Positions 50,096 through 64,000 of a stretch of DNA of 64,000 nucleotides are shown here, piece by piece. Source of the stretch: Candidatus Omnitrophota bacterium (GTDB taxonomy: Bacteria > Omnitrophota > Gorgyraeia > Zapsychrales > Fredricksoniimonadaceae). The DNA lies in the NCBI GenBank assembly GCA_030650275.1, contig JAUSEK010000012.1, positions 472 through 64,471 on the forward strand, in the 5' to 3' direction. Below the pieces are notes generated by a model that did not search any database, had not been told where the DNA came from, and saw nothing but the letters and a program-made list of their open reading frames with translations. How positions within the stretch are numbered: the first letter of the stretch is position 1; every line of letters begins with the position of its first letter. Made by a program: the position numbers and the translations under genes.

Positions 50096-53000
50096 TTATT
50101 TTTTGTCCTCACCCTCTTCAATCCGCGGTTCCATCAAAGATTTATCCGCGCCCGTGGGAACTCCCAATCCATAGGTTGGAACAATTTTCTGCCCTCCCGG
50201 GAACGCCGCTTGAAATTCTACATTAGAGATCATCTTATCAAAGATCACCGGCAGCAATGCCCGTGATTGAATTCCTGTAAATACTTGCTTATTGACGGCC
50301 TGGGGCAGGGTCTGCGAAGCAGTGATCCCACCAAAGTCCTGTACTTTGACAACAGGAGCTAAGACCCCGATACTGCGGATTCCCTCAAATGATGGTTGAA
50401 CCGGCAGCAATGCCCGTGATTGGACCCCGGTGAATACCTGCTTATTGACGGCCTGATGCGAAGCGGTGATCCCGCTAAAGTCCTGTGCTTTGATCACAGG
50501 AGCTAAGATCCCGATACTGCGAATTCCCTCAAATGATGGTTGAACCGGCAGCAATGCCCGTGATTGGATCCCGGTAAATACCTGCTTATTGATGGTCTGG
50601 GGCAGGGTACGCGACGGCGGTATTGGCGCCTTAGGCATGATCATCGGAACTACTGGTGCCGCAGGCATGATCATCGGAACTACTGGCGCCGCGGGCATCA
50701 TCATCGGAGCCATGGATACCCCGGGCATGATCATCGGCATTCTACCCGCACCAACGATCATCATTGGCATGCTTGGAGCAAATCTGATTCCGCCGCCGCC
50801 AAAAGTTGACGGCAAGGCCGGCCTAAACGAAACACTCTCCCCTTGTTTGATCGTGGCCCTGATATTTGCCTGGCCCACGCTTTCCTCAACACGATTATTG
50901 ATAATCACAAAACCCGGGATCGGCTCCTGAAAGAGGCCGGACCCACTTCCAGTAAGGGCGATGGAAACCATATCTTTCATTCCGCCGGCAGATATGGTCA
51001 ATGTGCCTGTAATATCTATGTTGATAGGACGGGCTGTCGTTCCTATGTAACCACTAACAGTCAGCGTGGCATTCGTCCCTTGTATTGTACCGGACGAGTT
51101 TGCCGTAAGATTTCCTGCTACAGTCAGCGTTTTGCCCCCCATTGATAATGTCGTACCGCTATTAATTGTCAAATTACCGACACTCACATTACTGGACAAT
51201 GTCGGCTTTGTCGCAGTGTCGGGAATGACCACATCCGTGGCGCTTGTCGGCACGCTGCCAGTATCCCAATTTGAAGGATTGTCCCAGTCCGTTGAGACAG
51301 CACCGGTCCAAGTGGCAACCTTAGCACTACTACTAAAATTCCAATTAGTATTATTGCCATTATCCATCACATTGTTGGAAGCATCAACGGCACTGCCGCC
51401 TGAAGCATTGGAATTAGCCACATTAACATAGGAAACATTAGATGTGCCGTTGATGGTCAAATTCCACTGATCCGTCCCAGACCCGCCGGAACGGCCCAAG
51501 GTGATATTATTCCCTAAAGTGCCGGTTATCGTAAAAGCTCCCCCGATGGTTTGAGTTGAAGCGGAGTCAAAGTTGATCGTCTTACCCGCCGCTGTGCTGG
51601 TAAGATTATTGAAGGTCGTGTTCCCGGAGATCACAGACGTTCCGGCGCCTGTGAATTCAACGGTCCCTGTACCCGCAGTAAAGGTACCTGAATTAGACCA
51701 GTTGCCGCCTACTTTGATCGTAGAGCTGTTGGCTGTAATGGTCCCCGCAGAGATCGTCAAGTCGCCGCCTAAGGTCACAGTATTGTTGAGAGAGAGCGTT
51801 CCTGCGCCTGCCTTGGTCAGAGCAAAGGTGTCACCCGAGATGGCACCACCGACCGTCAAGGTGCTGGCAGAGGCAGTGACTTGACGGCTAGCGCTGAGTG
51901 TCACGGCACCGGTGCCAAGATTCAAGGCATTAGTACCGGTAAAGGTAAAGTTCCCGTTCCAGCTTTGCGGATAGTTAAGGGTTGTGATGCTGCTGCCTGA
52001 GGTATTATCAATAGTGCCGGTTGTGATAGTGAAGGTGCCAGCCACCGTGCCTAAGGCCTGGGCATTATTGATATTGAGTGTACCGGCACTTAAAGTGGTA
52101 CCGCCAGTAAAGGTATTGACACCGGATAAAGTCAGCGTTCCTGTTCCGGCCTTGGTCAGAGCAAAGGTGTCACCCGAGATGGCACCACCGACCGTCAAGG
52201 TGCTGGCAGAGGCAGTGACTTGACGGCTAGCGCTGAGTGTCACTGCCCCTGTGCCTAGATTTAAGGCATTGGTACCGGTAAATGTAAAATTCCCATTCCA
52301 GTTCTGGGCATTGTTGTTGGATAAAGTGATGGAACCGCCCGAGGTGTTGTTGATCGTACCGGCTGTAATGGTAAATGTGCCGGTGCTGAGCGCAGTGGCG
52401 TTATTGATGTTCAAGATCCCTGCCGTCAAGGTCGTAGTCCCGCTATAGAGGTTGGCACCGGAGAGGGTCAACGTCCCAGAGCTCCCAACGTTAATCACAT
52501 TGGTTACATTGGCACCGATGACCGCGCTGATTATCGCGGTAGAGAAGTCGTTGTGGGTCACGGTGCCGATGTTGTTGATGCTGTTGGTGGAAAACGTGAT
52601 TGTGCTCAAGCTATGGGTGAGAATCGTCAGGTTGTTGGTGCCGGTCACACCCCCGCTGTAGGTTGACGATGTGGAGCATGAAATCTGCAGCGCACCGGCG
52701 GTGGCGTTCGTGGCCAACACGATCGGATTCGTAATCGTCAACGCGGCGGTCGATCTAAGCTCGACGGCGGCTGTTCCGCTGGTATCGCCCAGCGTGACCG
52801 TGCCGGCACCAAAGGCCGCGCTGACGCTGCCAAACACCTTGCCGGCCTTGAGGGTCAACCCGCTGCCGGTGAAAGTGTTCGCACCGCTTAAGTTCAAAAC
52901 CGAAGTGGTGGTGTTTTGAATCACATTGGTCACGTTGGTGCCGATGATGGCGCTGATCGTCGCGGTGCCGGTGCCGGTACCCGAGTTGGTCACGGTGCCG

Positions 53001-56000
53001 GTGTTGTTGAGGCTGGTTGTTGAGACCGTAATGCCGGCAGCGGTCGAGCTGTTGTTTTTAGTCACCACGTCGCCCGTGCCGGTCACACCGCCTGAGACAG
53101 TGAGCACCTTAGTTCCACTGCTGTTGGTCAACGTGGTGGCGGCAGCGTTGACCGTTATGGCACCGCTGACCGTCAGGGCCGAGGTCGTGCTGTTTAAAGT
53201 GATGCCGGTGACATTCGCGCCCACGGCCGCGCTGATCGTCGTGGTGCCGGTGCCGGCGCCAGTGTTGGTCACGGTGCCGGTATTATTGACGCTGGTCGTG
53301 GACAGAGTGATGGTACCGCTGGTGGCGTTGCTCTTGATCGTCAGGTTGTTCGTACCGGTCACGCCGCCGCTGAAGGTCGTTGAGATGGCAGTGCCGCTAT
53401 TGCCGATGGTCAAAGTACCGGTGGTAGTGGAAGCCAGCACGATCGCGTTGCTATACGTCAGGCCGGTGGTGCCGACCAACAGGGTCGCGGCAACGCTCCC
53501 GCCGGCACTGTCCCCTATCGTGATCGTGCCGGTACCAAAGGCGTTGGCGGCTGAAGATGTGCCTAACATCGTGCCCGCATTGATGGTCACAGCACCACTG
53601 AAGGTGTTGGCCCCGGAGAGCGTCAGGGTGCCTGTGCCGGTGGACATGGTCAGTCCGCCGGTGCCGGAGATGACGCCGCTCATGTTGAGTGTGCCCGCGT
53701 TGTTCACGGTGATCAAAAGGCCCCCATTGTCAATTGTGCCGGCGATGGTCAATGTCGTAGAAGCAGTGGTAGCGATCGTCGGTGCGGAGGTACTAAAGGT
53801 AATATTATTGTTGATCGTGCTGGTACCGACGGTATTGCTGATCGCTGACGACCCGCCGGCCAAGGTTAAAGCGTTACCGCCCAGAGTGAACCCGGTCGCT
53901 TGAATGGTAATTGACGCAAAGGTGCCGCCGGAAATATCATTATTAGGGGTCAGACGTGTTGTACCGTCAAAAACAAGCGCGTCGGTACTAACACCTGTAG
54001 GCGCGGTGCCGCCCCAATTGGCACCGGTTGACCAATTATCATCTCCACCGCCTCCATTCCACGTGAACGTAGCATCCCAGCCAATATTGATCTCCGCCCG
54101 AATATATTCATGACCGGCAAGAATGGGTACTAAAGGACCATAAGCGTGGCCGTAGTTGACGATGATATAATCCAAACTAGGATTCCCCAACCCATCACTG
54201 ATGGCATTGATGTACATCCCAAATTCATTGCCCTTGGCGGCAATAGAGGACTCAAGCGTAATATAATTAGGATAATTGGGGTATCCACCACCTTCTGCTC
54301 CCCTGATCGTCAAGGTGCCTTCAACGGTGGTCAGCGTATTGGCCTCGAATACCATCGTTTTACCCGGTGTAATGGAAGTTAAATTGTAAAAAGTGTTATT
54401 TCCTGAGACCAGGGAAACCCTGGAGGCATCTGTGAAGGTCACTGTCGAGGTTCCCGGTTCAAAAACGCCTCCCTGATTAGCCCAATCCTTGGCTATAAAA
54501 TATTGCGTATCTCCTGCTTTTAACGTAACCCCTTCGTTGATATCAATCGAGTCCCGGACGCTGACTATGGAACCCGGATATTGAATAAAGGTGACGGGGG
54601 CATCTGCTTGTTTTAAGATGAGGCTTCCCTGGGATTCGATATTGCCCAAGGTCAGTTCACCTGAAGATCGAATGGTGATGTCCCCTGCGGCGTACAAGTT
54701 AAGTGTGGTTGGATGAGAATCTGTATTGGTTGTGAGGCTGATGCTGCCGTTTAATGCGGAAAGACTAAGATCGGTATCGCGGTTGTAGAGAATGGCACCA
54801 AAAGAGGTGTCGTCCGGAGGGCCGCGAAACAATACATTTGAACCGATACCGGTGGCTTCCAAAATATTGATGTCGCCCTGGGATTTTTGAATGAAAATGG
54901 TGTTGGCCATAAGATTAAGAGGTTGAAGATAGAAACCAAACTTCTGGGCAACGACCTTTAACTGCTGGGCCTGGATGACCACTCCCGGCAAGGTGTTCAC
55001 CGCCGCGTTAGAGTTCAGGGTCAAATTACTGTTCTGAAGATAAGTAACGTCCACCCCATCCCCTTGAAGGGTGATCAAATCATCATGGACTGTGGCGCCG
55101 GTCAGATCGAGGTCCCCCAAGGTCTTATACAGTTGATTGGTAGCGGCATTGGAACTAATAACAAACCCTCCGGCAATGAGGGTGAGATCATCGACTGCCA
55201 AAGGTGTGCCAGTGGTGTCTTTGATGACCCCGTTGGGGGCCTCCAGGGTCAAAGCGCCGGAAGGATTGTAACGCAACTGGTCCCCCCGCTTAGTCGTCAA
55301 AACATTTCCGTCTTTGGCAGTGATCTCAAAATCGCCCTGGGTGTGCACATAATGGGGATTGCCTTCCATAGAGCTGGGGGGGCGGATAGCCCCCACCTGG
55401 ATGGTGCCGAATTCGGTTGATATGGTCCCGTTGAGCGTCATGACGCCTGATCCATCCACAGACACCGAACCATCCTTGGTGGTGGCAATGGTCCCTTTGG
55501 TCTGGCTAAAACTTCCCTGGCCATCACCATCTGAATCCGCCATGAGATTAATATCTTGTTTGGTGGTGGAAATATCTGAACTGACCTCAAGGTCAGCGGT
55601 GGTGGAAATATCAACTTTTGAATTTTGGGCTATGACAGGGCCGTCGATCTTGACCTGATCGTTGGCCACGATCTTAATGGTCCCGCTTTCTTGCACTAAA
55701 GACGCGGATTGGACCACACCGGTTTGATTAACGGCATTTTCAAAGATGTCCTGCGCTGTATTGACCGTCATAGCCACCTGTCTGGCTTCAATAGTGCCGG
55801 AATTGGCAATAGCATCTTTGGCCTCGGTCCCATCTTGTTTTAAAACCTTTTCACTGGTGGCTATGGAAACTTCCACCTGGATCAAACCAGAGTTATCAAA
55901 GCTGACCGTAGTTTTGTTGCCCGAAGCCAAAGCAATACTGCCCACCTTGGCCTGGATGATCCCGGAATTATCAATGCTGTTGGAGATCAAAGCGATGTTA

Positions 56001-56581
56001 TCCGCGAGGATGGCGCCCTGATTAACAATCTGCGCGGGGTCCGTGCCTTGCTGACGTTCAAATACATAATTGTGGTTAACGAAATTATTGGTGGAAATGG
56101 CCAACGTGGAAGCAACCAGGGTAGCAACATTCACCTGACTGGCGCTGCCAAAAGTGATCCCATTGGGGTTCACCAAAAACAACGCGCCATTGGCAAAAAT
56201 CTTGCCTGATATGTTGCTGGACTGATTTCCCGTGACACGGCTTAACAGTGTGGCGGAAACGGAGGGCTGGATGAAGTTGACGGTTTCAGTGGTGCCTATA
56301 TTAAAGGAGTCAAAATTGATGACGGTATTGTTGTCCGCTGTGATATTGAGGGTGCTGGCGTCCGGCTGGTCAAAAGAAGCTGTACCTACCTCAACACTTT
56401 GACCTTGCGGCAGGGCAAAAACAGGAGCGCATATCATGGCTCCTAAAACGAACGAAAGAATCGTAAACCCTATAGAAGACAGGCACTTAAAACTGTGTTT
56501 AACTGGGTGATTTAATTCCGGAAATGTATAAAAAGAAGCGGTGGGCGGGTAGATCTTATGCGGGGGACGAATGCTCCACAC
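50096..56581 (-). CDS. two-partner-secretion exoprotein (TpsA/filamentous-haemagglutinin family) with a beta-helical repeat shaft
   Basis: 2161-aa ORF. The N-terminal TPS domain carries the LFLVNPNGITFG motif. Hundreds of G/T/S/N-rich beta-strand repeats follow. The C-terminus is unusual: a Met/Pro-rich tract and three tandem 48-aa repeats. Confidence 0.85.
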   Translation of the reverse strand: MWSIRPPHKIYPPTASFYTFPELNHPVKHSFKCLSSIGFTILSFVLGAMICAPVFALPQGQSVEVGTASFDQPDASTLNITADNNTVINFDSFNIGTTETVNFIQPSVSATLLSRVTGNQSSNISGKIFANGALFLVNPNGITFGSASQVNVATLVASTLAISTNNFVNHNYVFERQQGTDPAQIVNQGAILADNIALISNSIDNSGIIQAKVGSIALASGNKTTVSFDNSGLIQVEVSIATSEKVLKQDGTEAKDAIANSGTIEARQVAMTVNTAQDIFENAVNQTGVVQSASLVQESGTIKIVANDQVKIDGPVIAQNSKVDISTTADLEVSSDISTTKQDINLMADSDGDGQGSFSQTKGTIATTKDGSVSVDGSGVMTLNGTISTEFGTIQVGAIRPPSSMEGNPHYVHTQGDFEITAKDGNVLTTKRGDQLRYNPSGALTLEAPNGVIKDTTGTPLAVDDLTLIAGGFVISSNAATNQLYKTLGDLDLTGATVHDDLITLQGDGVDVTYLQNSNLTLNSNAAVNTLPGVVIQAQQLKVVAQKFGFYLQPLNLMANTIFIQKSQGDINILEATGIGSNVLFRGPPDDTSFGAILYNRDTDLSLSALNGSISLTTNTDSHPTTLNLYAAGDITIRSSGELTLGNIESQGSLILKQADAPVTFIQYPGSIVSVRDSIDINEGVTLKAGDTQYFIAKDWANQGGVFEPGTSTVTFTDASRVSLVSGNNTFYNLTSITPGKTMVFEANTLTTVEGTLTIRGAEGGGYPNYPNYITLESSIAAKGNEFGMYINAISDGLGNPSLDYIIVNYGHAYGPLVPILAGHEYIRAEINIGWDATFTWNGGGGDDNWSTGANWGGTAPTGVSTDALVFDGTTRLTPNNDISGGTFASITIQATGFTLGGNALTLAGGSSAISNTVGTSTINNNITFSTSAPTIATTASTTLTIAGTIDNGGLLITVNNAGTLNMSGVISGTGGLTMSTGTGTLTLSGANTFSGAVTINAGTMLGTSSAANAFGTGTITIGDSAGGSVAATLLVGTTGLTYSNAIVLASTTTGTLTIGNSGTAISTTFSGGVTGTNNLTIKSNATSGTITLSTTSVNNTGTVTNTGAGTGTTTISAAVGANVTGITLNSTTSALTVSGAITVNAAATTLTNSSGTKVLTVSGGVTGTGDVVTKNNSSTAAGITVSTTSLNNTGTVTNSGTGTGTATISAIIGTNVTNVIQNTTTSVLNLSGANTFTGSGLTLKAGKVFGSVSAAFGAGTVTLGDTSGTAAVELRSTAALTITNPIVLATNATAGALQISCSTSSTYSGGVTGTNNLTILTHSLSTITFSTNSINNIGTVTHNDFSTAIISAVIGANVTNVINVGSSGTLTLSGANLYSGTTTLTAGILNINNATALSTGTFTITAGTINNTSGGSITLSNNNAQNWNGNFTFTGTNALNLGTGAVTLSASRQVTASASTLTVGGAISGDTFALTKAGTGTLTLSGVNTFTGGTTLSAGTLNINNAQALGTVAGTFTITTGTIDNTSGSSITTLNYPQSWNGNFTFTGTNALNLGTGAVTLSASRQVTASASTLTVGGAISGDTFALTKAGAGTLSLNNTVTLGGDLTISAGTITANSSTIKVGGNWSNSGTFTAGTGTVEFTGAGTSVISGNTTFNNLTSTAAGKTINFDSASTQTIGGAFTITGTLGNNITLGRSGGSGTDQWNLTINGTSNVSYVNVANSNASGGSAVDASNNVMDNGNNTNWNFSSSAKVATWTGAVSTDWDNPSNWDTGSVPTSATDVVIPDTATKPTLSSNVSVGNLTINSGTTLSMGGKTLTVAGNLTANSSGTIQGTNATLTVSGYIGTTARPINIDITGTLTISAGGMKDMVSIALTGSGSGLFQEPIPGFVIINNRVEESVGQANIRATIKQGESVSFRPALPSTFGGGGIRFAPSMPMMIVGAGRMPMIMPGVSMAPMMMPAAPVVPMIMPAAPVVPMIMPKAPIPPSRTLPQTINKQVFTGIQSRALLPVQPSFEGIRSIGILAPVIKAQDFSGITASHQAVNKQVFTGVQSRALLPVQPSFEGIRSIGVLAPVVKVQDFGGITASQTLPQAVNKQVFTGIQSRALLPVIFDKMISNVEFQAAFPGGQKIVPTYGLGVPTGADKSLMEPRIEEGEDKK
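50240..50620. repeat. tandem 144-bp repeats (about 2.6 copies) encoding the 48-aa C-terminal repeats of TpsA
   Basis: Repeated CGGCAGCAATGCCCGTGATTG... units. The protein repeat is AVNKQVFTG(I/V)QSRALLPVQPSFEGIRSIG. Confidence 0.7.
51565..52245. repeat. exact about 339-bp tandem duplication inside tpsA
   Basis: The identical block ...GTCAGAGCAAAGGTGTCACCCGAGATGGCACCACCGACCGTCAAGGTGCTGGCAGAGGCAGTGAC... occurs twice, giving two identical 53-aa protein stretches. Confidence 0.75.
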
Positions 56582-56717
56582 GATGACGGTTTCCTTTAAA
56601 TCTTACCGGTGCAATTCTTGACTCTTTTGAAAATATCATAAACTCTAGTGATCCCCTTTTCCTACTTCAAGTATATATTCTTATACTTGGGCTGTCAAAC
56701 CAAATGACGAACTTTTA

Positions 56718-58442
56718 TTACCATATTTGGCACTGCAGTGTCAGGCTCAATGTTGAATTTCCAGAACCCGCGGTGGGCTTGTTTCCCACCGCCTGGGCCC
56801 AGTCCATCCTCAGGTAAGTATGATCGGTCAAACGCAGCCGCACCCCTCCACCAACCCCTATTAACGTTTTTTCACGCTTTTCGCCGGGAAGAGTTTTCTT
56901 CAACCAGCCGCCGCCGGCATCAAAAAAGATCACCGGTTCTATCTGGGAGCGCAAGGTTTTTCCGGATTTGAGCATCTTCCAGTCCTCCGGGATAAAATAG
57001 GCCGGAAAATACCAATCTAAATTGACAAAGCCTCCCTCATCCGCAAGATAATCTCCTTCCGGATAACCCCGGATGGAATCCGCTCCTCCTAATTGCAGCT
57101 GCTCGGAAGACGTCAAGGTATGAGAAGCGGCCTGACCATGCGAACGTATCGAAAGGACCCCCACCGGCATTCTTTGCGTACGGTTCAACCCCTGATCATA
57201 TTTAAAAAAACCTCCGCCGGTTTTAGCGCGGCTGGCCGAGGGATGGTTCTCGGAGGATGCCCCCAAAAAATTGCTGGTCCCGAACGTAAAGCGCGGACTA
57301 AATTCCGTTTTACCCTGCCAGGGATCGATCTTGGTAAAATTAAAACCGAAATAAGGAAGCCGCAATTGATCATCCGATGTGGTTGTGCCCAAGGTTTTCT
57401 TTTTGATGGATTTGATCTCGATCCCGCTCTGGGCGCTGGCCTGAAAATCCTCACGCAACGCCAGTTCCCACGAAAAATGCGGATCGTAAATCTGCGAATG
57501 CCCGGTGATGTCCAGCGATTTAAAGTCCTTGCCTAACTTCATATCAAAATCAACAATGCTCATACCAAACTTGGTGCCGTAGGTGCCGACAGGGGTCTCA
57601 TAACTGATCATCTTACCCGACGATAAGGAACTGAAAATGGTGTACACGTAAAGAGAATCAAGGCGGCCGGTGATATTGGCATTCCCCCACCAGACTGATT
57701 CACGGTATTTCCCTGTCAGGCGTGTCCCCTGATTATCAAAACCGATGCCCAAATGGTCAGGCCGTTTTTCTTCGATCTTTAACGTGACATCCGAGGTCTG
57801 CGGCTGCCGGCCGGCGCCAATAACTGCCCTCACAGCCAGGATAGAATTCTTGCTGAGCCGTAACAGGTCCCTCTGCATTGTCTTAAAATTCAAAAGCTCA
57901 TTTTTCTTTATATGAAAATAGCGTTCAAACAGCCCCCGAGAAACCGATTTATTTCCTTCTATCGTTAAATCTCCCATCTTACCTTCAAAAACCCGGATCT
58001 CAAGTTTTCCGTTCTGGATATTCTGTTCGGGCAGTCGCACGATCGTGGTCAAATAACCTTTTTTCTTATACGCCTCCTTGATCCTGTCGATCACGGCATT
58101 GATTTCCTTGGCGGTCACTGTTTGATCAAGATAGGCCTTATAAGCAGAAAGAAAAACTTGCGGTTTAAAAAGCGTCATTCCGGTAATGTTCACTTCTTTG
58201 AGCACAAAAACAACGCCTGCCCCCTGCAAAGCCCCCTGCTCTTTTTCCTCCTGGATCGGCGGCATCTTGATCACTGCTTTTTCCAGTTGTTTTTTTCTCT
58301 TTTGACTTTCTTCCTGGACACGCTCCACCTGGGCCCCCGGTTCCTGTCCTGAAGGAGGATCATCAGCCCAAATCCTCTGGCTGGGAAAAAGAAGATAAAA
58401 AATTAAGAATGCTGTCGCGTATTTATATATAAATTTGACCAT
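56718..58442 (-). CDS. TpsB transporter (ShlB/FhaC/HecB family, POTRA plus 16-strand barrel)
   Basis: 574-aa ORF with a signal peptide, POTRA-like region and C-terminal barrel ending in an aromatic residue. Lies immediately upstream of tpsA on the same strand. Confidence 0.85.
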   Translation of the reverse strand: MVKFIYKYATAFLIFYLLFPSQRIWADDPPSGQEPGAQVERVQEESQKRKKQLEKAVIKMPPIQEEKEQGALQGAGVVFVLKEVNITGMTLFKPQVFLSAYKAYLDQTVTAKEINAVIDRIKEAYKKKGYLTTIVRLPEQNIQNGKLEIRVFEGKMGDLTIEGNKSVSRGLFERYFHIKKNELLNFKTMQRDLLRLSKNSILAVRAVIGAGRQPQTSDVTLKIEEKRPDHLGIGFDNQGTRLTGKYRESVWWGNANITGRLDSLYVYTIFSSLSSGKMISYETPVGTYGTKFGMSIVDFDMKLGKDFKSLDITGHSQIYDPHFSWELALREDFQASAQSGIEIKSIKKKTLGTTTSDDQLRLPYFGFNFTKIDPWQGKTEFSPRFTFGTSNFLGASSENHPSASRAKTGGGFFKYDQGLNRTQRMPVGVLSIRSHGQAASHTLTSSEQLQLGGADSIRGYPEGDYLADEGGFVNLDWYFPAYFIPEDWKMLKSGKTLRSQIEPVIFFDAGGGWLKKTLPGEKREKTLIGVGGGVRLRLTDHTYLRMDWAQAVGNKPTAGSGNSTLSLTLQCQIW

Positions 58443-60353: not shown

Positions 60354-60566
60354 ATGACCATAAAAAGCATAGAAAAAAATATTTTGCAATTACCGCCGAA
60401 GGAACGTATCCATATCGTTGAGCATGTATTGGCCAGCTTAAATACCCCTGATCAAAAAATAGAAAAATTATGGGTTGCTGAATCTGAAAAAAGATATGCT
60501 GCCTATAAATCCGGAAAAATTAAACCCATCAGCCTGCAAAGCATTAAAAAACGCTTCGCGCGATGA
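60354..60566 (+). CDS. type II antitoxin (putative addiction-module component family paired with RelE/ParE toxins)
   Basis: 70-aa ORF with LPPKERIHIVEHVLASL...KLWVAESEKRYAAYKSGK, matching the short antitoxins that precede ParE/RelE toxins. 4-nt overlap with the toxin gene. Confidence 0.7.
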   Translation: MTIKSIEKNILQLPPKERIHIVEHVLASLNTPDQKIEKLWVAESEKRYAAYKSGKIKPISLQSIKKRFAR

Positions 60567-60853
60567 ATATTATTTTTCTTCCCCCCTCTGATCAAGAGCT
60601 CCTTGAGGCCATTGAATTCTACGAACTTCAACTTCCTGGGCTTGGGTATGCTTTCACTGAAGAATTCTTTGAAACATTGGAATTCATTCGGAAATTCCCA
60701 AACGGATGGCAAAAAGTCAGTCGCCATACCCATAAATGTCCATTGCGTAGGTTCCCTTATCTAATTCTTTACGCTGTCGAAGAAATTCAAATAGTCATCA
60801 CCGCTGTTGCCCATCAACACAGACGCCCATCTTCCTACCTTGACCGTAAATAA
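60563..60853 (+). CDS. RelE/ParE-family toxin
   Basis: 96-aa ORF with a RelE/ParE-fold pattern and C-terminal basic residues. AT-rich coding sequence. Confidence 0.75.
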   Translation: MNIIFLPPSDQELLEAIEFYELQLPGLGYAFTEEFFETLEFIRKFPNGWQKVSRHTHKCPLRRFPYLILYAVEEIQIVITAVAHQHRRPSSYLDRK

Positions 60854-60972: not shown

Positions 60973-61371
60973 GTGGTTCAACTACTTGTGAAAATGTATA
61001 AATATCCGGGAAGAGGCACAACCATCGTTTTTGACCAACCTTTGGCCGCCCGTAAACTCCCTCCGCCAAAAACACTCAAGAATCTTATCACGGAAGCGAT
61101 GAAATTTCACGATTATTTAGCCGAAGATACTCAAAGAACATTTTTTGATGCCAGCCGCGAATTCAAGGTCACTCGGTCTTGGATATCCCAGCTGATGAAG
61201 ATAGCCAATGCCCTGCCAACCAACTTCCTCAAAGACATGAAATCCTGCACCGATCAAACTACCATCAAACGCTTTTCCGGCAAGACCCTAATGCACATCG
61301 CGAAACTCAAAACCCCTCAAGAACGGCAAACCACTATCAATAACTTATTAAGCGACTCCGCTTCAATATGA
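60973..61371 (+). CDS. hypothetical protein with a ParB/KorB-like HTH (lacks the N-terminal ParB/Srx domain)
   Basis: 132-aa ORF; FKVTRSWISQLMKIANALP resembles the ParB HTH. Low GC. Confidence 0.4.
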   Translation: MVQLLVKMYKYPGRGTTIVFDQPLAARKLPPPKTLKNLITEAMKFHDYLAEDTQRTFFDASREFKVTRSWISQLMKIANALPTNFLKDMKSCTDQTTIKRFSGKTLMHIAKLKTPQERQTTINNLLSDSASI

Positions 61372-61534: not shown

Positions 61535-62908
61535 TTAGCTGTTTTTTAAAATATAATGCGTAGTTTTCCCTACACCCTGTTTTTTGATAATCTTTAAACC
61601 TATCAACCGCTTTAATAATTGATTAGCAGTTTCACGGGTTATCTTAAACATCTTTTGAATCTCTCCGCTACCAATCTGTTTATTAGCAACTATATGCTCG
61701 ATAACCTTACTTTCTCTCTCAGTTAAACTAAATTGTGTTAGATATCCTTCTGTGATCTTTGTCTTTCGTAACGTAACGACAATGCTACTTCCAGCGTATT
61801 CAAATTCCGGCTCTGGCAATCCCCATTCCTTACACCATGAAATTATTTTATTAGTTCCTGTTCCAACCTCTTCAGCATATCCAATCCGGAAAAATGCTGT
61901 GGCAATTGAAGGATTTACCGGTTTTGATTCATGCGTTTGTTTTAATGTTGCCGTAGTCCAACCTTGCGGCAGATGTCCCGGATTCCAGAACTCCATACGG
62001 TCATCAAATATCCTGATCTGTACTTTTGAAGTGGTTCTATAGTCTCGGTGTGCCAAAGCATTTGATAATATTTCTCTAATAGCTTTGGGCGGATACAGCC
62101 ATTTTTCCTGCCGTTCTAATTTTCCCGATTCAATCCATGCACGCATTGGAATATGATCAAAAATAAATTTTTCTGCTTCCTTTACAAGTCTGATGACATC
62201 TGCGTTGACTGGCTTTAAATCTATCATTTCCCCCGCTACATCCACTCCTTTAAACCTGATGCATTTTACTTCCAACTGTTCAAAAAACTTTTCTGGATTT
62301 TTTCCAAACAAAAGAACCGCACCATTAGTCAGCTTACCGTTATTAAGCAACTTAAGCTGTGTTAATATCGCTTTCAGCGATCCATTCTCGTCAACATCAA
62401 GGTCACGTTTCTTTTTGGCAGACAATACAAAATTCTTAACTTTTGTAATATCAATATCTGTTAACGACGATCCTTTGCAAATTTCATTATCAAAATGATG
62501 CGATTCTTTGTATTTTTCCAGAATCAACCCTTCGTATTCATCCTTGCCCATCTGCCGGGTTGAGGGCCCCACACGCTTATACGGCCTACCATCCGCCAAG
62601 ACCAATTTATCTTTGGACTGTTTAACCTCAATGACAATTATTTGTTTACCTTTAATCTTTTTCACAGTGATCTTCGGCTGGATTCTTGGATCCGTGTGCT
62701 GGGCAATACGATTGACTAAATCTTCAACAGTGCCTTTGCCGATCTGAACACCCTGAACCTCTCCAGTCTTTGATACGCCCACAAGCAACCGCCCACCCTC
62801 GGTATTAGCGAAGGCCGTTATACTTTCAACGATCTCATGAATTTGAGACAGTGACGGCTTCCATTCAATTATCGTTGATTCACTAGAACCAATTAATTTT
62901 AATGACAT
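61535..62908 (-). CDS. AlbA_2 (Schlafen-like) / HATPase_c_4 / C-terminal HTH protein (often mis-annotated as a RecG-like or ATP-dependent DNA helicase-related transcriptional regulator)
   Basis: 457-aa ORF with an N-terminal ESxxxEWK...AFANTxGGxLxxGV AlbA_2 signature, a central ATPase-like region and a C-terminal winged HTH. AT-rich. Confidence 0.7.
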   Translation of the reverse strand: MSLKLIGSSESTIIEWKPSLSQIHEIVESITAFANTEGGRLLVGVSKTGEVQGVQIGKGTVEDLVNRIAQHTDPRIQPKITVKKIKGKQIIVIEVKQSKDKLVLADGRPYKRVGPSTRQMGKDEYEGLILEKYKESHHFDNEICKGSSLTDIDITKVKNFVLSAKKKRDLDVDENGSLKAILTQLKLLNNGKLTNGAVLLFGKNPEKFFEQLEVKCIRFKGVDVAGEMIDLKPVNADVIRLVKEAEKFIFDHIPMRAWIESGKLERQEKWLYPPKAIREILSNALAHRDYRTTSKVQIRIFDDRMEFWNPGHLPQGWTTATLKQTHESKPVNPSIATAFFRIGYAEEVGTGTNKIISWCKEWGLPEPEFEYAGSSIVVTLRKTKITEGYLTQFSLTERESKVIEHIVANKQIGSGEIQKMFKITRETANQLLKRLIGLKIIKKQGVGKTTHYILKNS

Positions 62909-63031
62909 TATGCCCCCTACCCGCTTTAACCTCGGCGGTGAATTTCTTGAATTCGATTGTTTCGGATTCTTTATGCATTAGATTTCCTAATTTACCCGTA
63001 AATTATGTTACACGTCTATGATCATATTTTA

Positions 63032-63868
63032 TTACTTTTTTGTTCGAAGAACTAAAATGCTATCATCCATAAGAACTACACCTGCTGGCTCTCCACGCAT
63101 AACTGCAATCTTATTCCATATCCACTTATCTTCAATGCCTGCAATCTTTTTCTTTCCCTTCATTCGAATTCCATAAACAGTCCATCCTGCATCTTTTAGA
63201 ACTTCGAGCGTTTTTGAAATACCCACTACTGATCGCATTTGATCAGGAACCTCTATATCATCCCAAATATCACCCAAATCACGCAATTCTTGAATAAAAC
63301 CGCCCACAAGATCAATTTCTAAATCGCTATTTGGTTCATCATTAAAAAAATACGAAAAATGACAACCGATTACAACGTCAACAATTTCTCTACCAGTGGT
63401 TAATCGAGGCATTACGACCATCCGCTTCTGCCATGCTTCCAGTATTCCGGGCTTAATTACTTCGATCAGTTTGGGCACAACAATATTAATACCATCTTCC
63501 CATTTACAAGCTATCCGATCCGCTAAAATATGCGAAGAAGATCGGACATTCTTTTCATCAATCCCAACCCAAACAGGAAGAATGACTTTCTCTCCGTTCA
63601 CTTCTTTTTGCGCCAATCCGTCTAATTCAAGATTTGTATAATGTTTATCAAAGAAAGCTGTTGATAAAATCACTATGCCATACCGGCTTTTATTCAAGCC
63701 ATCGTCTATCTTACGACGAAGACTATCTCCAATCTTTAGATCAAACTGATCAAACCATACACTTATACCCAAAGAAGACAACAGCTGAGCAAGCGGCTTT
63801 GCAACCGTTTCTCGATCTTCTGATGCATAAGAAATAAAAACATCTTTCTCAACTATTGATGAATTCAT
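63032..63868 (-). CDS. TIR-domain protein with an uncharacterised C-terminal domain of about 140 aa
   Basis: 278-aa ORF. The N-terminal DVFISYASEDRE...WFD TIR signature is followed by ILSTAFFDKHYTNLELDGL. About 38% GC. Confidence 0.8.
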   Translation of the reverse strand: MNSSIVEKDVFISYASEDRETVAKPLAQLLSSLGISVWFDQFDLKIGDSLRRKIDDGLNKSRYGIVILSTAFFDKHYTNLELDGLAQKEVNGEKVILPVWVGIDEKNVRSSSHILADRIACKWEDGINIVVPKLIEVIKPGILEAWQKRMVVMPRLTTGREIVDVVIGCHFSYFFNDEPNSDLEIDLVGGFIQELRDLGDIWDDIEVPDQMRSVVGISKTLEVLKDAGWTVYGIRMKGKKKIAGIEDKWIWNKIAVMRGEPAGVVLMDDSILVLRTKK

Positions 63869-64000
63869 AGTTTGCGACTTCAGTTTTCTTATTTGTTAAT
63901 GTCGCAAGAAATCTAATCGTACTCGTGACATGATTAAAAATTAAAAGGCTCTCATTATAATTTAATACCGGATTATCATGAGCCAAACTTTGATTATTTC

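Follow-up and report, generated by a model that had tools for sequence, protein, structure and literature searches.

[quoted passage not shown] For sensor domains such as SAVED, STING and CARF, combination with a set of alternative partners comprising TIR, HNH, TM and HTH domains is the typical pattern. Among the TIR enzymes, AbTir uses E208 as the catalytic residue and requires W204 for cyclization of ADPR; the diphosphate is bound by K202 and S143 and the adenine by W227, two residues of the BB loop, G174 and S176, are indispensable, and 2'cADPR is the product of both AbTir and BtTir (bioRxiv 10.1101/2022.05.07.491051). Catalysis by TIR domains of the AbTir class, as well as by that of SpbK, needs head-to-tail clustering of the TIR domains (bioRxiv 10.1101/2022.05.07.491051; PMC12847820). 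SpbK itself is a single-gene TIR NADase which is activated when its non-TIR domain docks on the phage portal (PMC12847820). Furthermore, architectures in which AbiJ N-terminal domains are combined with HEPN, TIR or REase domains, including TIR fusions, have already been described, and the AbiJ N-terminal domains were proposed to serve as heads for phage sensing or as antitoxins (Anantharaman et al. 2013, PMC3710099).

Here we analyzed a stretch of 64,000 nucleotides from a contig of Candidatus Omnitrophota (the window), which contains at its end a gene for a TIR protein of a different layout. Proteins of the AbTir/TcpB class begin with a coiled coil and have the TIR domain at the C-terminus, whereas in the protein studied here, TIR-X, the TIR domain is N-terminal and is followed by an unrelated domain that we call X. 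With its TIR half, TIR-X falls within the usual range of the AbTir/TcpB class; the novelty resides in the X domain and in its modular reuse.

The gene and its upstream region

In the initial annotation the TIR-X gene had been placed as an ATG-initiated ORF of 278 aa on the minus strand, and its coordinates proved to be exact. The gene and the features directly upstream of it are the following.

63032..63868, minus strand: TIR-X gene, 278 aa, ATG start; TIR domain, linker helix and X domain
63849..64000, minus strand: 3' end (50 codons) of the AbiJ-like HEPN gene located upstream, which leaves the window (L090:515-1306 in the public contig locus described below)
63872..63907: inverted repeat TTGCGAC-N22-GTCGCAA, with arms at 63907-63901 and 63878-63872

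A protein 100% identical to TIR-X has been deposited from a Candidatus Omnitrophota MAG (P0001). More than 90 full-length homologues were found with 41-78% identity across many phyla, and near-full-length ones of about 280 aa numbered more than 100, the hosts belonging to the Omnitrophota, Desulfobacterota, Bacteroidota, Latescibacterota, Gemmatimonadota/Longimicrobiales, Chloroflexota and others. Cultured strains with homologues, detected by an alignment-based scan, are Geobacter hydrogenophilus DSM 13691, Hymenobacter aranciens and H. ginsengisoli; a scan of GTDB genomes with the single TIR-X protein gave no match. As judged from these sequence comparisons, TIR-X is a real, conserved and horizontally spread gene.

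Over 10,969 nt the public contig locus L090 has the same sequence as the window, and it continues for another 1,154 nt past the window. The upstream gene encodes a HEPN protein of 263 aa with a C-terminal Pfam Abi_C domain (E 3.4e-13) and the R-x6-H motif RNNQSLAH, the N-terminal part of about 175 aa being unannotated. Upstream of this gene, the C-terminal end of an AAA_13 / PADLOC PDC-S06 protein is encoded (L090:2-454). The HEPN coding sequence and the start of TIR-X overlap by 20 nt. This overlap suggests that TIR-X is co-transcribed with the HEPN gene, and transcription of TIR-X most likely enters from upstream.

The inverted repeat had previously been reported as TGCGAC-N22-GTCGCA at 63876-63909 and assigned to the promoter region of TIR-X. 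The repeat does exist, with coordinates differing by about 3 nt, but its placement in a promoter region could not be upheld, as it is located within the HEPN coding sequence and not in an intergenic region. Inverted repeats of at least 7 bp also turned up when the upstream stretch of 132 nt was shuffled (35% of the shuffles) and in 27% of the 132-nt tiles covering the window, and the z-score of the RNA fold is -1.0. Since such a repeat is expected by chance and this one is part of a coding sequence, we rejected it as a promoter element, operator or terminator.

TIR domain

The following positions are relevant for the N-terminal half of the protein.

63455..63847, minus strand: TIR domain of the AbTir/BtTir/PdTIR/TcpB class, aa 8-138
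63626-63628, minus strand: codon of the predicted catalytic glutamate E81
63638-63640, minus strand: codon of the aromatic residue Y77

That the protein begins with a bacterial TIR domain, as had been read from its N-terminus, was confirmed by family, profile and structure searches. Pfam TIR_2 matches aa 10-105 with an E-value of 1e-21. When a profile of 93 homologues was searched against the PDB, the TIR domain of AbTir (7UWG, 8G83) was found with a best E-value of 1e-54 and 50% identity, and BtTir (7UXR), TcpB/BtpA (4LZP, 4C7M, 4LQC) and PdTIR (3H16) were likewise found in the range of 1e-47 to 1e-54. A Foldseek search with the AlphaFold2 model of the full-length protein (mean pLDDT 85.7) resulted in target-normalized TM scores of 0.82-0.90 and identities of 40-50% to PdTIR 3H16, AbTir 8G83, BtTir 7UXR and TcpB 4C7M.

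The functionally important residues of AbTir were mapped onto TIR-X as follows: E208 corresponds to E81, W204 to Y77, K202 to K75, S143 to S13, G174 and S176 to G47 and S49, and W227 to W100. Among the 93 homologues no variation was seen at E81, G47, D48, S69 and W100; K75 and S13 are conserved to at least 90%, while Y77 and S49 match the family consensus only (HY and GDSL, respectively). The catalytic Glu in helix alphaC, the aromatic residue at position -4 from it, the Gly and Ser of the BB loop and the adenine-binding Trp are common to TIR-X and AbTir, BtTir, PdTIR and TcpB. Because TIR-X combines the TIR fold with the active-site residues of AbTir, its TIR domain is assigned to the enzymatic class that produces cADPR isomers, with an activity predicted from this assignment. 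The whole protein is probably an NAD-degrading TIR immune enzyme of the AbTir type, with a putative NADase activity and a presumed function in defense.

The PADLOC model PDC-S66, which describes coiled-coil-TIR proteins, matches only aa 6-121 of TIR-X, at profile positions 147-262 of 282. TIR-X was not regarded as a member of this family, as the order of the domains is reversed and the remainder of the protein is X.

The TIR domain is 40-42% identical to that of TcpB/BtpA, and on this ground TIR-X might be viewed as a host-directed virulence factor which, like TcpB/BtpA/TcpC, interferes with eukaryotic TLR signaling. We consider this extremely improbable, since TIR-X occurs in lineages that live freely in the environment (Omnitrophota, Geobacter, Hymenobacter, Latescibacterota), a secretion signal was not noticed and the genomic context of TIR-X is that of defense islands.

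It also seems very unlikely that TIR-X acts like ThsB and generates a signal, either a cADPR isomer or some other derivative of ADPR, for an unlinked effector. Such a role would be in line with the 2'cADPR made by the AbTir/BtTir class, with the aromatic residue kept at the cyclization position (Y77) and with the PADLOC ThsB models, which match the TIR domain with an E-value of 4e-32. However, NCBIfam Thoeris models stay far below their cutoffs (24 bits for ThcB4 compared to a cutoff of 220), and no conserved receptor gene, whether ThsA-like, SLOG, Macro or of another type, was found near any of the 16 loci analyzed. A ThsA-type effector gene (SIR2/SLOG or Macro/TM) was found neither in the window nor in L090 or the 15 other loci. 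Based on the score of the ThcB4 model and the lack of a ThsA-type gene nearby, TIR-X was not classified as a Thoeris ThsB.

Two further system types were considered and rejected. For a CBASS or Pycsar effector, Pfam and PADLOC match the TIR part only and the alignment of the full-length model with TIR-STING (6WT7) has an rmsd of 18 Å; in the annotated neighborhoods of TIR-X no CD-NTase, pyrimidine cyclase, Cas10 or other cyclase was found. For SPARTA, which consists of TIR-APAZ and a short pAgo, PADLOC Aga_TIR and the SPARTA chains align through the TIR domain only, and there is no pAgo gene.

A C-terminal domain without a name

The second half of the protein is occupied by a single domain.

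63044..63421, minus strand: X domain, aa ~150-275, about 125 residues, following the linker helix; unnamed alpha/beta domain

The AlphaFold2 model of X alone has a pLDDT of 92.8 and a pTM of 0.84. In this model a strand-helix-strand unit is followed by a long two-helix hairpin and by a four-stranded antiparallel sheet, which opens with a long beta-hairpin. From 248 sequences the signature residues R155, G159, D177, E184, F191, Q193, D197, D200, W202, D204, G228, G233, W249 and R258 were derived. Among these, the polar set R155, D177, E184, Q193, D197, D200, D204 and R258 is kept in the 248 X domains whatever head domain they are joined to, and structural Gly, Phe and Trp residues are conserved beside it.

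The initial annotation had recognized no motif in the C-terminal half, and none was found by us in the libraries searched. Neither single sequences nor any member of the alignment gave a match in Pfam, PADLOC, NCBIfam or PHROGs. The best hit of the X profile among the PDB sequences was farnesyltransferase alpha with an E-value of 0.25, i.e. noise. Foldseek searches with the X-only model returned nothing from the PDB at E<0.05 or TM>0.4 and nothing from the viral structures of BFVD, and a literature search for a named equivalent of X found none. The C-terminal half was also checked for a match to a known partner domain of TIR systems, e.g. STING, SAVED or ThsA-type domains, with a negative outcome. 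X was rejected as a STING, SAVED, CARF, APAZ or cNMP-binding domain, as it matched none of these by sequence or by Foldseek. The best Foldseek rows were SpoVS structures with E-values of 0.06-0.09, TM scores of 0.32-0.37 and an rmsd above 10 Å. These are not evidence of homology and were rejected as such; at most they might be a weak lead to an Alba-like strand-helix-strand-helix-hairpin order. X is an autonomous, conserved and confidently folding domain that has no name in the family and structure libraries searched.

Combination of X with other head domains

An X profile was searched against 1.84 billion cluster representatives (clusters at 50% identity), which gave 970 matches at E<=1e-3 and 567 at E<=1e-10. 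For the best 150 of the about 970 X representatives, the N-terminal partners were counted.

HNH nuclease: 60, plus 2 divergent
XRE-type helix-turn-helix: 34
TIR: 20
Short N-terminus or fragment: 27
Single TM helix: 2
Schlafen AlbA_2: 1 (P0208)

According to PADLOC, the HNH heads are of the Cap5 / SAVED-HNH effector type. The combinatorial logic of X and its heads is the same as that of TIR-SAVED, TIR-STING, Cap5 (HNH-SAVED), TM-SAVED/STING and HTH-CARF. Since X is joined to alternative output domains, the sequence data argue that X serves in regulation, sensing or assembly rather than as a second effector. The C-terminal region had initially been suggested to be a distinct sensor or effector domain. 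Its distinctness was retained, and the HNH, TM, HTH and AlbA_2 heads favor the sensor over the effector. X appears to be a new module of anti-phage defense, of a plug-in type and with a regulatory or sensor function.

In some TIR-X proteins an AbiJ_NTD3, AbiJ_NTD4 or DUF2513 domain is added at the N-terminus, and in these members X need not be the sensor. TIR-X of the window has no AbiJ-NTD, and its relation to the AbiJ family consists in the AbiJ-NTD heads of these relatives and in the AbiJ-type HEPN (Abi_C) gene directly upstream. The X domain is not described in the work on AbiJ architectures, and DUF2513 is likewise outside that paper (Anantharaman et al. 2013, PMC3710099).

An assembly role in its simplest form would make X a constitutive dimerization or oligomerization scaffold, i.e. 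a C-terminal replacement of the coiled coil of AbTir/TcpB that also serves HNH and HTH domains, with regulation taking place via e.g. expression or substrate level. HTH and HNH domains function as dimers or oligomers, as do TIR domains, and the closest TIR relatives (AbTir, TcpB and the PDC-S66 model) consist of a coiled coil plus TIR, compared to TIR plus X. The long helical hairpin and the long beta-hairpin in the model of X would also suit a scaffold. However, a plain dimerizer would not need a polar set (R155, D177, E184, Q193, D197, D200, R258) that is common to the X domains fused to TIR, HNH and HTH, and a permanently assembled TIR domain of the AbTir class would be toxic. In addition, the TM-X and AlbA_2-X architectures are better suited to a sensor. 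We regard the scaffold as a possible but doubtful explanation.

By tblastn, three X domains had no match in the plasmids of PLSDB and the X domain of the window had none in the phages of INPHARED, and in IMG/VR TIR-only relatives were present but no full-length TIR-X. One HNH-X gene was found in mobile surroundings with ArdC, ParA and AbiE.

Proposed mode of action

The reading that we prefer, tentatively and with nearly balanced confidence, is that TIR-X may be a self-contained single-gene abortive-infection NADase in which X controls the clustering of the TIR domains. The N-terminal TIR domain of the AbTir class would be the output domain, and X would be the control module that holds the protein inactive, probably as a dimer. 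When X meets an infection cue, which could be a phage protein or a small molecule, higher-order head-to-tail clustering of the TIR domains would follow. The clustered TIR domains would jointly build composite active sites, in which NAD+ would be consumed. The aromatic residue at position -4 from the catalytic Glu would fit a cyclic ADPR product, so that the outcome may be depletion of NAD+ and/or a product of the cADPR type. This reading is favored by the class of the TIR domain, by the autonomous fold of X and its reuse with other heads, by the lack of a partner gene, by the defense context and the extra sensor-type heads, and by the precedent of SpbK. Counted against it are the loci with no obvious defense neighbors and the negative searches for X among plasmids and phages and for full-length TIR-X in IMG/VR.

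As a model for this mechanism we propose SpbK, where a phage trigger acting on the non-TIR domain would cluster the TIR domains. Like TIR-X, SpbK from ICEBs1 of B. subtilis is a single polypeptide that combines TIR with a small non-TIR domain, has no partner gene and is located on a mobile or defense element. In SpbK, however, the sensor is N-terminal and made up of four helices and the TIR domain is C-terminal, while the X domain of TIR-X is C-terminal and of alpha/beta type. TIR-X was not assigned to the SpbK family, given the opposite order of the domains, the absence of SpbK from the results of the PDB profile search and the lack of a detected sequence or fold relation to X. The likeness between the two proteins is, by analogy, a functional one only.

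If this proposal is correct, X would add another control module to those known for bacterial TIR immunity, a compact one with about 970 clusters and four or five output domains. Once its trigger is defined, it would show how infection is sensed by a large set of so far unannotated single-gene TIR and HNH proteins. In the engineering of NADases or nucleases, X may also be of use as a new switch. As homologues are present in cultured strains, the function of X is directly testable.

Genomic context

Around TIR-X the order of genes is AAA_13 (PDC-S06), AbiJ-like HEPN, TIR-X, a Schlafen-like ATPase and a ParE toxin-antitoxin pair. The two downstream features are located as follows.

61535..62908, minus strand: Schlafen AlbA_2 + HATPase_c_4 + winged-helix protein (Pfam), 457 aa, 123 nt downstream of TIR-X
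60354-60853, plus strand: type II toxin-antitoxin pair, Unstab_antitox antitoxin of 70 aa overlapping a ParE-family toxin of 96 aa

The GC content is 36-42% over 60-64 kb compared to about 50% in the adjacent sequence (about 48-59% in the preceding 10 kb). This low-GC region at the end of the contig is consistent with a horizontally acquired defense island.

The AlbA_2 domain of the Schlafen-like protein is 35% identical to that of P0208, the sole AlbA_2-X fusion found. As a partner of TIR-X the Schlafen-like gene was rejected, because it is not conserved beside TIR-X elsewhere. Between the two genes a 31-codon ORF (MHKESETIEFKKFTAEV...) is present at 62883-62978 on the minus strand, which resembles the start of an AlbA_2 domain; the same is true for the real start of the Schlafen-like gene (ESTIIEWK). 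The short ORF may be the remnant of a recombined or duplicated 5' end. An ORF of 132 aa at 60973-61371 (plus strand), located between the toxin-antitoxin pair and the Schlafen-like gene, gave no match in Pfam, PADLOC or NCBIfam.

An all-against-all BLAST of the neighboring genes from 16 TIR-X loci revealed no conserved partner gene. Usually TIR-X is located in defense islands, and often it is tightly appended to another defense gene. In two relatives (74% and 70% identical, on six contigs) it directly follows GajA-GajB and overlaps the GajB stop by 8 nt. At L014 it overlaps the preceding HNH gene by 16 nt, and at L017 it starts 11 nt after a type III Res gene. Other relatives are found after a TPR-HEPN gene or between a phage tape-measure gene and a resolvase, and the loci L002, L004, L005-7 and L008 have no obvious defense neighbors. 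In the Gabija loci (L001:4144-8846 and L097-L101), TIR-X is the last gene of the cassette, and a conserved hypothetical gene of 172-175 aa precedes GajA.

The tight spacing, with overlaps of 20 nt in the window, 8 nt behind GajB and 16 nt in L014, and a gap of 11 nt in L017, could mean that TIR-X is a non-autonomous second-line effector of the preceding defense gene, i.e. of the AbiJ-like HEPN RNase in the window and of Gabija in the relatives. X would then sense the activity of that system or its nucleic-acid breakdown products. This explanation would also accommodate a gene at L055, in which the N-terminal domain of the HEPN protein is encoded 60 nt upstream of an AbTir-like TIR gene, and two HTH-X genes that adjoin PD-(D/E)xK nucleases. 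On the other hand, the upstream partners are mutually unrelated and several loci have none, dense packing of genes is common in defense islands, and the linkage to Gabija may reflect a single inherited arrangement. Thus, we consider such a dependence unlikely.

A broader proposal, which we hold to be rather unlikely, is that X is a so far unrecognized infection-sensing domain with a role like that of SAVED, STING or CARF. Combined with TIR, Cap5-type HNH, TM and HTH outputs, it would need no dedicated cyclase and would detect a phage-derived molecule or by-products of neighboring nuclease-based defenses. Such by-products would be nucleic acids or nucleotides from HEPN, Gabija, type III R-M and PD-(D/E)xK defenses, and TIR-X would be a second-line effector that monitors other immune systems at work.

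The L055 locus (Verrucomicrobia MAG) shows a further arrangement. The first 82 aa of the gene product of L055:971-1831 are 51% identical to the N-terminus of the upstream HEPN protein of the window. Its C-terminal half differs and appears restriction-endonuclease-like by eye, with no Pfam or PADLOC match. The gene 60 nt downstream (L055:1892-2929) codes for another AbTir-like TIR protein with a different unannotated C-terminal domain. A fusion of the HEPN N-terminal domain to TIR was considered for this locus and rejected, as these are actually two adjacent genes. The N-terminal domain of the HEPN protein plus a nuclease beside a TIR gene may be a recurring pairing.

XRE-HTH-X genes were observed beside PD-(D/E)xK nucleases at two loci, L091:6001-8185 and L119:2635-5693. 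In one of them a PDDEXK_4 gene lies downstream, and in the other a divergent gene encodes a 728-aa Mrr_cat/NA-iREase1 protein. These arrangements may represent regulator-nuclease pairs.

The defense island of the window is bordered by a region at 50096-58442 (minus strand) in which a ShlB/POTRA_2 transporter of 574 aa (Pfam) is encoded downstream of a 2161-aa ORF. We read these two genes as a two-partner-secretion-like pair, in which the large ORF would, judging from the gene arrangement, encode a putative exoprotein.
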